A stretch of DNA of 64,000 nucleotides from Thermotogaceae bacterium (GCA_029981435.1 JARRBB010000005.1:1934-65933); one strand, 5' to 3'. Positions 32,085 to 40,038 are shown, counted from the stretch's first letter. Notes: generated by a model not told the origin, from the sequence alone. Numbers and translations are program-made.

Positions 32085-32146
32085 GGAGGTGAACCCGGCT
32101 TATCCCGTGGTGCGAAGCACGGGAAAAGAGGTCGGGAGGAAATATG
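32085..32146 (+). promoter_or_regulatory. Structured rplE leader: SD-hairpin-ATG element
   Basis: GGAGGTGAA, outer stem CCCGGCT/GGTCGGG, inner stem TCCCGTG/CACGGGA, 7 nt, ATG. GC-rich against an AT-rich background. Confidence 0.65.
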
Positions 32147-32692
32147 GAAGTACCTTTAAAGAAAATTTATGAAGAAGAAGTAGTCCCTGCGTTGATGAAA
32201 GAATTTGGTTACAAAAACAAGCTTCAAGTTCCCAGGCTTGTTAAAATTGTTTTAAATATGGGAATTGGTGAAGGTTCAAGAAACAGAGATATAATCGAGC
32301 AGCACGCTAAAGAAATGGAATTGATAGCAGGTCAAAAACCTGTTATTACAAAGGCGAAAAGAGCTATCTCTAACTTCAAGATAAGAAAGGGTATGCCTGT
32401 TGGTGTGAAAGTTACTTTACGTGGAAAGAATATGTACAATTTCCTTTATAAATTGATAAATCTTTCTTTACCGAAGGTTAGAGACTTCAGAGGTGTTAAC
32501 CCAAATTCGTTCGATGGAAGAGGAAATTTCTCTATGGGTATTACAGAACAACTTATTTTTCCTGAAATATCACCAGATCAGGTTAAGAGAATTCAGGGAA
32601 TGGATATCATAATCGTCACGACCGCAAAGACCAATGAAGAAGCAAGAAGATTGCTCGAATTGTTGGGAATGCCTTTTAGAAAACAACAGTAA
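32144..32692 (+). CDS. rplE: 50S ribosomal protein L5
   Basis: [31 protein letters not shown]. Confidence 0.99.
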
Positions 32693-32712
32693 GTTGGGAG
32701 AGGTGAATAAAA

Positions 32713-32898
32713 TTGCCAAGAAAAGGTATTATAGAGAGATGGAAAAAACCTAAGAAATACAAGGTCAGAGAATATACAAGATGTAAGATTTGTGGCCGAC
32801 CAAAAGCCGTCTACCGTGAATTCGAATTGTGCAGAGTATGTTTCAGAAAACTGGCACACGAAGGAAAACTACCTGGCGTAAAAAAGGCCAGCTGGTAA
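32713..32898 (+). CDS. rpsZ: 30S ribosomal protein S14 type Z (zinc-binding)
   Basis: RCKICGR...[15 protein letters not shown]; 61 aa. Confidence 0.98.
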
Positions 32899-32929
32899 GT
32901 TATTGGTACAAAGTAAAGGAGGGAGCTTA

Positions 32930-33334
32930 ATGTGGAGTGATCCCATTGCTGATATGTTGAACAGACTCAGAACAGCGAACTTAGTCTTTAAAGATAATGT
33001 TACCGTTCCCGCGTCTAAATTAAAGCTTGAAATTTGTAAAATCCTTAAAGACGAAGGTTTCATAGCCGATTACAAATACATAGAAGATGGCAAACAGGGA
33101 ATAATAAAGATATCTATGAAATACAAAGGTGATAGAAGAAACAGGGAAAGAGTAATAAATGGAATAGTGCGTGTTTCAAAAAGTGGTAGGAGAATTTATG
33201 TAACGAAAGACAAACTTCCGAGAGTTAAAGGTGGACTCGGAATAGCAATAGTTACTACTTCAAAAGGAGTTATGACTGACAAAAAAGCAAGAGAACTTGG
33301 AGTTGGCGGAGAAGTCATAGCTTACATCTGGTAA
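32930..33334 (+). CDS. rpsH: 30S ribosomal protein S8
   Basis: [29 protein letters not shown] 32930 follows GGAGG. Confidence 0.99.
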
Positions 33335-33350
33335 TAGGAGGTGGGTAATA

Positions 33351-33917
33351 ATGAAAACCGCTGTTTCGAGACTTGCAAAATATCCTATAGATATTCCAAG
33401 CAATGTAGAAGTGAAGATAGAAGGCAATGTGATAACTGTTAAAGGTCCAAAAGGTGAGTTGAAAAGAGAAATAAATGAACTTGTTGAATGTAAGATAGAG
33501 AACAACCAGATTCATGTTTCACCAAATATGAGTATGTTGAAAAGAAAAAGCTTCGCAAAAAATCTTAGAATTTTCACTGGTACATACTGGTCACACATAA
33601 GAAATATGATAAAAGGTGTAAGTGAAGGTTTTTCAAAGGAGCTGGAAATTGTTGGTATTGGATATCGTGCTCAACTGCAGGGTAAAAAGCTGGTCTTAAA
33701 CCTTGGTTATTCACATCCTGTAGAAATAGAAATTCCAAATGATTTACAAGTAGAGGTTCCAGAGCCAACCAGAGTGATAGTCAAAGGTATTGATAAAGAA
33801 AGAGTAGGACAGTTTGCTGCAAACATTAAAGCTTGGAGAAAACCGAACGTTTACAGTGGTAAGGGCATAAGGTATAAAGGTGAAGTGATCAGAACCAAAG
33901 TCGGTAAGAAGGTTTAA
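33351..33917 (+). CDS. rplF: 50S ribosomal protein L6
   Basis: [28 protein letters not shown]. Confidence 0.99.
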
Positions 33918-33932
33918 TGGAGGGTGATCGTT

Positions 33933-34301
33933 GTGATTAAAAGAATAAATAGAGAGGCTTTGAGGAAAAGAAGGCATCTTCGAGTCAGAAAAAAAGTTTT
34001 CGGAACACCTGAACGCCCAAGGTTGTGTGTTTATAGAAGTGAAAAACATATTTACGCCCAGATAATAGATGACACAGCAGGACATACCATCGTCAGTGCC
34101 TCAACTCTCGATAAAGAACTTAAAGATTCTCTTGCGAAAACATGGAACAAGACAGCTGCGAGAGAAGTGGGAAAACTCATTGGAAAGAGAGCACTGGAAA
34201 AAGGTATTCAGACTGTGGTTTTTGACCGTGGTGGTTTTAAGTACCATGGACGTGTTAAAGAACTTGCTGAAGGTGCTAGAGAAGCAGGATTAAAGTTTTA
34301 G
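33933..34301 (+). CDS. rplR: 50S ribosomal protein L18
   Basis: [29 protein letters not shown] 33933 is 9 nt after GGAGG. Confidence 0.98.
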
Positions 34302-34315
34302 GGAGGGATAAATGA

Positions 34316-37412: not shown

Positions 37413-38176
37413 TAATCCTTAAAAGGTTATATGAAATAAAGAAGATGGCTCTTGCAGGCAGGATTCTTGGGGAGCTTTTTGAAATATTACCTGATAGACT
37501 AAAAGAAGGAGTCAGTACTTTTGAAATTGATAAGTTTATAGAAGAATTTATATTTAAAAATGGTGCCAGACCTGCTTTTAAAGGGTATGAAGGCTACAGT
37601 TTTTCAAGTTGTATATCCATAAATAATGAAATTATTCATGGACTTCCTTCTAAAAACAAGATCATCAAGTCAGGAGATATTGTTTCTATAGACGTGGGAA
37701 CCGTCGTTGATGGTTATTATGGTGATGCTGCAAGAACATACATAGTTGGCACACCGAAAAATTTTCTTGACGAAAAACTTGTTGAGGTGACCTTTGAGGC
37801 ACTTGAGATGGGTATAAAAAATGCTGTGGTTGGAAAAAATATAGGAGATGTTTCTTATTCCATTCAAAATCATGTTGAAACAAATGGTTTTTCAGTGGTT
37901 AGAGACTTCGTTGGTCATGGAGTTGGTAGAAAACTTCATGAAGATCCTCAAGTGCCCAATTATGGAACTCCAGGTACTGGTGCAAAAATAATGAATGGTA
38001 TGACATTGGCATTGGAACCAATGGTTTGTCAGGGAGACTGGAGAATTGACATATTAAGCGATGGCTGGACTGTTGTAACACTCGACGGGAAAAACGCAGC
38101 ACATTTTGAAGATACAATTGCTATCGTTGATGGTCAGCCTCTTATACTGACGAGGATTGAAGGGGGCTTTTCATGA
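37409..38176 (+). CDS. map: Methionine aminopeptidase type I
   Basis: [33 protein letters not shown]. Confidence 0.98.
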
Positions 38177-38421
38177 AGAAAGAAGAAACTATAAAACTTG
38201 AAGGAAAGATAGTTGAAGCGCTTCCAAATGCTATGTTCAGAGTTGAACTTGATAATGGTTTTAAAATTCTGGCTCATGTTTCTGGCAAAATGCGAAAGAA
38301 CTTTATAAGACTCGTCTTAGGAGACAGGGTTGTAGTAGAATTATCACCCTATGATTTGACAAGAGGAAGGATAATATATAGAAAAAAAGCTGGTAGGAGG
38401 GAAGAAGACAATGAAAGTTAG
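38173..38421 (+). CDS. infA: Translation initiation factor IF-1
   Basis: [35 protein letters not shown]. Confidence 0.98.
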
Positions 38422-38527
38422 AGCTTCTGTTAAAAGAAGATGTGAATATTGTAAAGTTATAAAGAGAAAAGGGCGTGTTAGAATTCTTTGCTCAAGGAAT
38501 CCAAAACATAATCAGAGACAAGGTTAA
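38411..38527 (+). CDS. rpmJ: 50S ribosomal protein L36 (not in the ORF track; 38 aa)
   Basis: Manual translation [46 protein letters not shown] lies inside infA. Confidence 0.98.
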
Positions 38528-38549
38528 GATTCTAAGGAGGGATATTTGA

Positions 38550-38921
38550 ATGGCTCGTATTGTTGGTGTAGAGTTACCTAATCAAAAGAAGTTGTTTATT
38601 GCCTTGACTTATATATATGGTATAGGTAGAACAAGAGCAAATGAAATACTACAAGCAACCGGAATAGACCCAGATAAAAGGGTAAAAGATCTTACTGAAG
38701 AAGAAATAAGTAAAATAACTCAGTTCATAAATGAGAACTACAAAATAGAAGGTGAACTGAGACAGGAGGTTCAGAGAAACATAAAAAGATTGATAGACAT
38801 AGGTTGTTATAGAGGTGTTCGTCACAGGCTTGGTTTACCTGTTAGAGGTCAGAGAACCAGAACAAATGCAAGAACCAGAAAAGGTCCAAGACCAGGTATA
38901 GGTTCTAAAAAGAAGAAATAA
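38550..38921 (+). CDS. rpsM: 30S ribosomal protein S13
   Basis: [30 protein letters not shown]. Confidence 0.99.
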
Positions 38922-38941
38922 GCGGGAGGTGCTTTTAATAA

Positions 38942-39340
38942 ATGGCTAAAAAAGCTTCAAGAGGTAGAGGGACTGCTAAGAAGAAGAGATTGACCACTGA
39001 CCGTGGAGTAGCACACATAAAATCTACATTTAACAACACTATAATAACCATAACTGATCCAGATGGAAACACGATAGCCTGGGCAAGTGCTGGAACGGTT
39101 GGATTTTCTGGAACTAAAAAGGGGACACCTTACGCAGCACAACTTGCCGCAGATAAAGTTGCAAAGGAAGTCTTGAAAATGGGATTGAAGAAACTCAACG
39201 TAGAGGTTAAAGGCCCTGGATCAGGTAGAGAAGCAGCTATAAGAACGTTACAGGCTGCCGGTTTGGAAGTTCAACAAATTAAAGATGTCACTCCAATACC
39301 ACACAACGGTTGTAGACCAAGAAAAAGAAGAAGAGTTTAA
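38942..39340 (+). CDS. rpsK: 30S ribosomal protein S11
   Basis: [24 protein letters not shown]. Confidence 0.99.
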
Positions 39341-39358
39341 TACGAGGAGGGAAATAAC

Positions 39359-39985
39359 GTGGCTAGATATACCGGGTCAGTTTGTAGGCTTTGCAGACGC
39401 GAAGGAGTAAAACTTTATTTAAAAGGCCAAAGATGTTATAGTGAAAAATGTGCTTTTGATAAAAGACCATTTGTTCCCGGACAACATGGTTCTGCAAGAC
39501 AGAAGATGACTCAGTACGCTTTACAATTGAGAGCAAAACAGACTATGAAAAGAATATATGGAGTTCTTGAAAGACAATTCAGAAACTATTTTGCTGAAGC
39601 AGTTAAAACAAAAGGTGTTACAGGCGAAAGACTCGTTAAGATAGTTGAATCACGGCTTGATAATGTCGTTTACAGAATGGGTTTTGCTTTCAGCAGAAGA
39701 CAGGCAAGACAACTTGTAAATCACGGACACGTTTATGTTAATGGTAAAAAAGTTACCATACCATCTTATAGGTTGAGAGAAGGAGATATCATAGAGATAA
39801 AAGAAAAGAGTAGAAACATACCTTTTGTAAAAGAAGCTGCTGAATCATCAAGAGAAAGAATAACTCCAAAATGGCTTGAAGTAGATTATGATAACTTCAG
39901 AGGTACGTTCTTGAGAACGCCTGAGATCGATGAAATCGAATTGCCTGCAGATGTTCAGGCGATAGTTGAATTGTACTCCAAGTGA
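39359..39985 (+). CDS. rpsD: 30S ribosomal protein S4
   Basis: [39 protein letters not shown]. Confidence 0.99.
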
Positions 39986-40000
39986 TACTATTAACTCCAA

Positions 40001-40038
40001 GGAGGTGAACCTGGTCATTTTGGCCGGGGTTGTTCATG
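40001..40038 (+). promoter_or_regulatory. Structured rpoA leader: SD-hairpin-ATG element
   Basis: GGAGGTGAA, stem CCTGGTC/GGCCGGG, 7 nt, ATG. Same geometry as the rplE leader. Confidence 0.65.

Follow-up and report, generated by a model that had tools for sequence, protein, structure and literature searches.

A candidate hairpin-bridged ribosome binding site ahead of rplE and rpoA in a Thermotogaceae bacterium and its relatives

Hairpins that bridge a distant Shine-Dalgarno (SD) sequence and its start codon are textbook curiosities, known from two genes of phage T4. According to the part of the source drawn on here, the hairpin of T4 gene 38 shortens the distance between SD and AUG from 22 to 5 nucleotides (nt) and that of gene 25 from 27 to 11 nt, mutations that destabilize the hairpin of these split sites lower initiation, and the gene 25 structure is kept among close T-even phages (PMC3014915). 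We analyzed a stretch of 64,000 nt from Thermotogaceae bacterium (GCA_029981435.1 JARRBB010000005.1:1934-65933; this whole stretch is the window, and positions are counted from its first letter), in which a full-length SD, a hairpin, and an ATG follow one another in front of both rplE, encoding ribosomal protein L5, and rpoA, encoding the RNA polymerase alpha subunit. Like the T4 genes, these leaders have a distant SD and a hairpin that shortens the spacing, here from 54 nt (rplE) and 30 nt (rpoA) to 4 + 7 nt. Unlike the T4 sites, they lie in cellular operons, are conserved throughout entire families of a bacterial class, in front of two or three particular genes for translation and transcription, combine a maximal-length SD with a purine/pyrimidine asymmetry of the stem arms, and include, at rplE, a two-tier hairpin with a conserved apical loop; they are also known from sequence alone.

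In Escherichia coli, the thrS hairpin lies upstream of the SD and not between the SD and the AUG. The thrS operator, a "split ribosome binding site" that resembles our leaders in having a folded hairpin within the ribosome binding site (RBS), is described as a site where the ribosome accommodates the folded hairpin and a protein competes (PMC3936740, in part). At the same rplX-rplE junction as here, E. coli has a structured RNA at the L5 initiation site, and it is at this start of rplE that ribosomal protein S8 shuts down the spc operon; in the alpha operon, rpoA is the gene exempt from control by S4 (PMC3616713, in part). The S8 site, reported to be narrowly distributed to Gammaproteobacteria, takes in the start codon and part of the coding region and resembles the site that S8 binds in 16S rRNA (PMC3616713), whereas the rplE hairpin here lies wholly between the SD and the AUG and had no rRNA match at the sequence level and no Rfam match. 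Our leaders are also akin to the ribosomal protein leaders in Rfam and the 20 candidates of Eckert and Weinberg 2020, which are conserved structures in ribosomal protein operons found by covariation. The main text of PMC7247131 contains no mention of "Thermotog", names rpoA only as a gene downstream of S4 leaders, and lists no ribosomal protein leader in Thermotogae or directly upstream of rplE or rpoA. A literature search that covered leader surveys by their main text found no conserved cellular example of a hairpin-bridged SD-AUG pair and no case from Thermotogae. Searches with Rfam 15 gave no match at the gathering score in the window or in the gene clusters of 8 genomes of the class, and no match to either leader at E-values up to 10 (positions 24000-42000); a comparison with Rfam had been proposed in an earlier, sequence-only reading of this DNA.

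Every base and coordinate given for the two leaders in that reading was recovered. At rplE, the block GGAGGTGAA (32085-32093) is followed by a 5' arm (32094-32100), 29 nt, a 3' arm (32130-32136), 7 nt, and the ATG at 32144; at rpoA, GGAGGTGAA (40001-40009) is followed by arms at 40010-40016 and 40022-40028, separated by 5 nt, and then by 7 nt and the ATG at 40036. The linear distances, counted from the 3' end of GGAGG to the ATG, and the 4 + 7 unpaired nt left when the hairpin is folded were likewise as claimed. The rpoA N-terminus (MIEYVMPKK) aligns with relatives from residue 1, and an in-frame TGA (40006-40008), inside the distal SD, closes the rpoA frame upstream. A non-canonical start just after the distal rpoA SD was rejected, given this TGA, linear distances without a period of three, and the lack of any start before an in-frame TTG at 40030, which has no counterpart in G002. 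The latter genome, of the same order, is the closest comparison since the same-genus assembly (G001) is without rplE and rpoA. Each hairpin sequence occurs once in the genome, and a repeat or mobile element was thereby rejected.

The 16S rRNA 3' tail (...GGATCACCTCCTTTCTA) was taken from three genomes of the class, as the rRNA genes are not in this assembly. The 9-nt block is present in both leaders, as the sequence-only reading had it; however, because AAGGAGGTGA is complementary to the entire anti-SD tail, the block is a maximal SD rather than a signature peculiar to the two leaders. The window contains it 5 times (0.47 expected), and GGAGGTG was found at 225 sites in the genome, 148 of them with a start codon 3-13 nt downstream. 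The predicted duplex of the distal SD with the 16S tail reached -17.8 kcal/mol at rplE and -17.1 kcal/mol at rpoA in this genome, with means over all leaders of -16.1 and -18.8 kcal/mol, respectively; ordinary SD windows had a median of -13.2 kcal/mol (10-90%: -16.3 to -11.4). The proximal window, comprising the 15 nt before the start, averaged -5.9 kcal/mol in rpoA leaders and -6.7 kcal/mol in rplE leaders, near the coding background, which had a median of -3.3 kcal/mol with a 10th percentile of -7.8. Proximal windows reaching -8 kcal/mol were identified in 9 of 38 rpoA and 5 of 13 rplE leaders, and that of rpoA in this genome (-6.2 kcal/mol) is close to background.

Folded on its own, the 43-nt rplE hairpin had a minimum free energy (MFE) of -23.5 kcal/mol (z -4.5; 0 of 200 shuffles as good) and the 19-nt rpoA hairpin one of -10.3 kcal/mol (z -3.9; 1 of 200). 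At 65 C, the predicted folds of the SD-to-ATG segments kept -13.0 kcal/mol at rplE and -5.9 kcal/mol at rpoA. The rpoA stem of G002 is the same as that of this genome except for 1 wobble-to-Watson-Crick change, and its rplE outer stem (TCCGATC/GATCGGA) has both partners replaced in two pairs and one partner in two more, all without loss of pairing, around an inner hairpin that is nearly unchanged. The stem likeness CCYGGYY/GGYCGGG reported between the two leaders holds in this genome but is not kept in G002. The two leaders share an architecture, that is, an SD and a geometry, and not a repeated sequence, and the proposal of one repeated sequence element had to be given up.

To place the leaders, 151 genomes of the class were searched for rpoA, which was located in 149; a segment of about 17 kb on its upstream side was taken from the 148 other genomes, and 30 genes of the S10-spc-alpha cluster were found by tblastn and their spacers read. 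The layout was scored where GG[AG]GGTG or AGGGGTG was followed by a single hairpin with an MFE of at most -4, lying 2-5 nt after GGAGG and 5-8 nt before an in-frame start, at a linear distance of at least 18 nt. A first classifier, which allowed GGAGG only, an MFE of at most -6, and no GGAG or GAGG 3-13 nt from any candidate start, had scored 32 of 149 genomes at rpoA, 6 of 127 at rplE, and 6 cases among the remaining 28 genes, and was replaced because short stems and GGGGGTG SDs were missed. The rpoA layout was identified in 52 of 147 genomes belonging to 5 of 11 families (f1, 1/1; f2, 1/1; f5, 3/3; f9, 24/24; f7, 23/26), and the classifier did not find it in f4 (0/2), f11 (0/16), f6 (0/17), f10 (0/24), f3 (0/16), or f8 (0/17). 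The rplE layout was identified in 13 of 126 genomes (f1, 1/1; f8, 12/13); G002 also has it by eye, but with only 4 nt before the ATG. The layout is kept at rplE in 3 families. Among the other 28 cluster junctions, the layout occurred in 2 of 3,609 cases, 1 each at rplD and rplW, and is thus close to specific to the rpoA and rplE junctions of the 30-gene cluster.

Across f1, f2, f5, f9, and f7, the rpoA leader reads GGAGGTG (GGGGGTG in one genus), 1-3 nt, a stem-loop, 5-7 nt, and ATG, and the stems are unrelated in sequence (CCTGGTC, GGGCTCGAG, GCCC, CTCTGA, CCCGG, ACTCCAATTTAG, and others), with the f5, f9, and f7 hairpins occupying the same position as that of this genome. Spacers before rpoA are 2-6 nt in f11, f6, and f10, where the SD GAGGTGA takes in the stop codon of rpsD. 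An ordinary SD precedes rpoA in f3 and f4, and in f8 a terminator-like hairpin comes first and then an ordinary SD. At rplE, f1, f2, and all f8 leaders read have an SD, an outer stem enclosing an inner hairpin, 4-7 nt, and the ATG, and every other family has an ordinary SD. The sequence-only reading had called for a check of conservation and covariation in relatives and thought the element possibly lineage-wide. The check came out in its favor, with the layout kept in several families and compensatory changes within them; the distribution is patchy, with no rpoA layout found in the genomes searched from the six other families, and lineage-wide it is not.

Covariation was found within single families. 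For the rplE leaders of f8 (11 distinct sequences), RNAalifold predicted 14 pairs, 9 of them changed on both sides, with 94.8% of cells paired vs 81.5% in shuffles (slid partners at most 49%) and a covariation score of 0.571 vs 0.293; none of 500 shuffles reached either the score or the pairing value, and the three apical closing pairs and the hexaloop CTGNNA are invariant. The rpoA leaders of f7 (19 distinct sequences) gave 6 basal pairs, 5 changed on both sides, with 88.5% paired and a score of 0.479 vs 0.275 in shuffles, again with 0 of 500 shuffles as high. A covariance model built from the f8 rplE leaders and run over 287 kb gave as its best matches outside the training set the rpoA leaders of f7, f2, and f5 (E 0.0026, 0.011, and 0.021), the rplE leader of this genome (E 0.026), an f9 rpoA leader (E 0.16), and the rpoA leader of this genome (E 0.19). 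These matches, with weak scores and rough E-values driven by the SD, basal stem, and ATG, are consistent with a shared layout and are not proof of homology.

The geometry extends across families. In 39 unique rpoA leaders, the linear GGAGG-ATG distance ranges over 22-40 nt with no period of three, and because of this and the in-frame TGA in the rpoA SD, the leader hairpins are not coding. In 26 of 39 the gap between GGAGG and the stem is 4 nt (range 2-8), and in 37 of 39 the gap between the stem and the ATG is 5-7 nt. Of the unique leaders, 36/39 at rpoA and 12/15 at rplE fit the layout, vs 6% and 5% when the segments are dinucleotide-shuffled. Unpaired nucleotides mostly add up to 8-11, and ordinary GGAGG-start spacing in the same clusters has a median of 8 nt (10-90%: 7-11; n = 1,292), with a spacing of 4 nt in 9 of 1,292 ordinary starts. 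The unpaired spacing is constant while stem length and sequence vary, and the covariation within families indicates that the structure of the leaders is under selection. Two unrelated GC-rich inverted repeats that happen to follow SDs can be given almost no weight as an explanation: short hairpins are common and the wider rpoA context is not unusually stable, but chance is contradicted by the conservation, the covariation, and the specificity for two junctions across 149 genomes.

A FastTree phylogeny of 11 concatenated cluster proteins (2,083 columns) covered 130 of 149 genomes, each with at least 9 of the 11 proteins, with f4 left out; it was midpoint rooted, and some nodes were supported at only 0.68-0.73. 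Its topology, (((f3,f8),(f1,f2)),f5) and ((f9,f7),((f11,f6),f10)), places the rpoA layout on both sides of the midpoint root, as would fit three gains or, alternatively, one old origin followed by two losses. At rplE, the layout is confined to one clade (support 0.998), within which it is absent in f3.

The leaders have a conserved, covarying architecture, a strong distal SD, and a weak proximal region, and we lean, with some reserve, toward reading each of them as a hairpin-bridged, or split, RBS of the T4 gene 25/38 kind in cellular operons. The 30S subunit would dock on the unusually long and exposed SD AAGGAGGTGA, the hairpin after it would stay folded and loop out, and about 4 + 5-7 unpaired nt would be left between the SD duplex and the start codon, a workable distance. 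The folded hairpin would thus permit initiation and would set the output of rplE and rpoA independently of upstream translation. Because its apical loop is conserved, the rplE hairpin may additionally be bound by a factor. The sequence-only reading had inferred a discontinuous RBS or a protein-binding leader; its observation is confirmed and this interpretation is supported in part.

Several points weigh against bridging. The rpoA region is not unusual in a 66-nt context (z -0.68; 41 of 200 shuffles as good), and at rplE the proximal GGGAGG, already pointed out in the sequence-only reading and half buried in the stem, is predicted to bind the 16S tail at -11.7 kcal/mol and might take over when the stem melts, though its 4-nt spacing is rare among ordinary starts. 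The 3' arm is moderately SD-like in roughly a quarter to a third of leaders. Further, the 3' arms of basal stems are purine-rich and the 5' arms pyrimidine-rich (0.67 vs 0.33), an asymmetry present in 33 of 38 rpoA and 11 of 13 rplE leaders that bridging does not require and that a masked SD predicts. RNAalifold returned no pairs in the mixed rplE alignment (A1, 15 sequences) or in the rpoA alignment of f9, f1, f2, and f5 (A4, 21 sequences), because MAFFT cannot align stems of unrelated sequence; geometry was for that reason scored by script, and the cross-family support is geometry and not formal covariation. The geometry count is itself partly circular because the choice of ATG used the fold criterion, and the starts so chosen agree with protein N-termini. 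The specificity control is weakened by most other spacers being too short for such an element, and the counts overstate independence, the genomes being related.

The alternative that survives best, which we regard as possible yet clearly less probable than bridging, is that a trans-acting protein, such as an autoregulating ribosomal protein, uses the hairpin as its operator. It is more likely for rplE, where S8 or L5 would be the candidates and a protein sitting on the hairpin that separates SD and AUG would obstruct or trap the 30S subunit, and it is compatible with bridging. The invariant apical part of the f8 rplE leaders speaks for an operator, as does the near identity of the inner hairpin between this genome and G002 while the outer stem has changed. 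Both E. coli precedents point the same way, with S8 acting at the rplE start while rpoA escapes S4 (PMC3616713, in part), and with a thrS RBS that holds a folded hairpin and that a protein closes (PMC3936740, in part). However, the apical parts of f1/f2 and f8 differ, and the rpoA hairpins have no conserved loop or stem across families, unlike a specific protein site. The E. coli S8 site overlaps the coding region, as far as the cited part of PMC3616713 describes it, unlike the rplE hairpin here, and Rfam provided no leader match. Sequence-level mimicry of rRNA was not found either: the f8 loop and the inner-hairpin motif of this genome had 0 matches each in the 16S-23S-5S operons of two f8 genomes (G023 and G042, both with the rplE leader), and in the rRNA operon of G013 (f9) the f8 loop had one unrelated match and the inner-hairpin motif none. 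Informal inspection by eye showed no resemblance to 5S loop C or 16S helix 21.

We consider it unlikely that the distal SD is instead a standby site and that the working SD is the purine-rich 3' arm, masked by the 5' arm, so that the hairpin must melt and would act as a brake or as a temperature- or translation-sensitive switch. In its favor are the position of the 3' arm, which stops 5-7 nt short of the ATG where an SD would ordinarily be, the strong arm asymmetry, and a clear proximal GGAG, GGAGG, or GGGGG in the rplE leader of this genome and in G008/G014, G097, G082, and G022. Against this, most leaders are without a usable proximal SD (29 of 38 at rpoA and 8 of 13 at rplE weaker than -8 kcal/mol), the f5 arms (CTCGAGCC) have no proximal SD at all, and in such leaders melting leaves the distal SD 22-40 nt from the start.

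Slightly less probable still is that the hairpins are processing, stability, or attenuation elements, such as 3'-end protectors, RNase sites, or weak terminators, with an incidental position. Stabilizing hairpins are well known at junctions of binding-protein and permease genes, and this genome has a 14-bp hairpin of the same layout between a substrate-binding-protein and a permease gene. A simple scan flagged the rpoA hairpin of this genome, with its tail GTTGTTC, as terminator-like, and the f8 rpoA gene is preceded by a hairpin of that kind. Yet terminator-like sites are not more frequent in the region than in shuffles (6 vs 5.3), and post-hairpin tails are not T-rich in relatives or at rplE, on which grounds a conserved intrinsic terminator or attenuator was rejected. 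A stability element also needs neither an upstream SD nor fixed flanks of 4 and 5-7 nt, and one case of the layout in this genome, at a lipoprotein gene, sits in a 5' untranslated region (UTR) behind a promoter-like site and not between genes.

Scans and inspection identified four more SD-hairpin-ATG leaders in this genome (Table 1). One of these precedes an S1-domain gene and reads GGAGG or GGGAGG, 2-3 nt, CTTCTG...CAGAAG (or CAGAGG), 6-7 nt, and ATG in 6 of 6 f3 loci read and in two f8 genomes (L229, L230, L234, L236, L242, L252, L253, L255); both f1 genomes have, by eye, a longer related form (TTCTC...GAGAA). The classifier passed 9 of 30 S1-domain loci, one of them a likely false positive. 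The S1-domain gene is thus a third gene with the layout, kept in three families.

Table 1. Features of the two leaders in the window and other genes of this genome (G000) with an SD-hairpin-ATG layout
Feature	Position	Strand	Description
rplX (L24), 5' of the rplE leader	31763..32080	+	Open reading frame (ORF); Pfam ribosomal_L24 (5.9e-28) and KOW
Distal full-length SD, rplE leader	32082..32093	+	Core GGAGGTGA at 32085-32092; complement of the 16S 3' tail
rplE leader hairpin	32094..32136	+	Outer stem 32094-32101/32129-32136; inner hairpin 32103-32109/32118-32124
Proximal GGGAGG, rplE leader	32134..32139	+	4 nt before the ATG; first three G inside the outer stem
rplE (L5)	32144..32692	+	ORF; Pfam Ribosomal_L5 and L5_C; N-terminus aligns with relatives
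rpsD (S4), 5' of the rpoA leader	39359..39985	+	ORF; Pfam Ribosomal_S4 and S4
Distal full-length SD, rpoA leader	39999..40009	+	Core GGAGGTGA at 40001-40008
rpoA leader hairpin	40010..40028	+	MFE fold: 8 bp, 3-nt loop; sequence-only reading: 7 bp, 5-nt loop
rpoA (RNA polymerase alpha subunit)	40036..41064	+	Start ATG 40036; Pfam RNA_pol_A_bac, RNA_pol_L, RNA_pol_A_CTD
S1-domain gene after rpmE (L222)	G000:C64:669-1843		SD-hairpin-ATG layout
ABC permease gene after a binding-protein gene (L223)	C91:5641-7293	-	14-bp stem
Lipoprotein gene (L224)	C51:1-1023	-	5' UTR behind promoter-like TTGACT...TATAAT
Small membrane-protein gene (L225)	C89:40095-41090		After a gene of the same orientation

Other features were observed around the SDs and the two junctions. 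An anti-SD-like CACCTC lies 17-25 nt before the distal rpoA SD in f7 (e.g., L186, L180) and is replaced by GCGCCT in the f7 genus whose SD is GGGGGTGC, and an anti-SD-like TACCTTCT lies 5 nt before the distal rpoA SD in f9 (e.g., L073, L086). Such segments, conserved in position, could sequester the distal SD; taken one sequence at a time, they did not outdo shuffles (median fraction of shuffles scoring at least equally, 0.30 and 0.42). At three genes of this genome with products that begin like signal peptides, the start and its SD are preceded, at about 75-80 nt, by an orphan full-length SD, GGAGGTG (G000 C4, minus, 6832; C7, plus, 1820; C32, plus, 2507). An 8-nt direct repeat, ACTCCAAG, occurs at 39975-39982 (the rpsD end, then TGA) and at 39994-40001 (into the leader SD, then GAGGTGA). 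As the rpoA SD GAGGTGA of f6, f10, and f11 contains the rpsD stop, this repeat points to a spacer that may have arisen by duplication of the rpsD end. In f8, L5 has a lysine-rich N-terminal extension starting at the ATG right after the hairpin (e.g., L204, L201, L183), which is very long in two genomes. A weak Rfam match to Alpha_RBS (RF00140, the S4 site of the alpha operon; 17.1 bits vs a gathering score of 38, E 4.2) lies at 38478-38582 on the plus strand, before and into rpsM, the position of that element in E. coli. The window stretch is present in oil-field, shale-gas, crude-oil, and subsurface metagenomes, and no variant within either leader was found among the matches listed (metagenome contigs of four sequencing runs). 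Neither leader is spanned by a contig of the RNA run. One contig of run X12 joins 32070 to 32175 via 40 other letters and comes from some organism in the sample with a different, shorter rplX-rplE junction.

If the split-site reading holds, the class would offer dozens of natural variants in stem length, loop, and sequence for studying how the 30S subunit accommodates structure between the SD duplex and the P site, and predictors of start sites and RBS strength that assume linear spacing would misjudge such genes. The junctions of rplE and rpoA would be marked as special within the S10-spc-alpha cluster in a phylum far from E. coli. A further-reaching possibility, which we hold to be doubtful, is that ribosomes of this class routinely initiate across a hairpin with a maximal SD anchor, at the two control points of E. 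coli, and that the rplE leader is a true operator whose conserved apical loop would be recognized by one of the cluster's own products, with the 30S subunit thereby trapped on the split site. Were it so, the rplE operator would be an independent invention of the spc-operon feedback in an organism far from E. coli, which regulates the start of the L5-led translational chain and rpoA by quite different RNAs.

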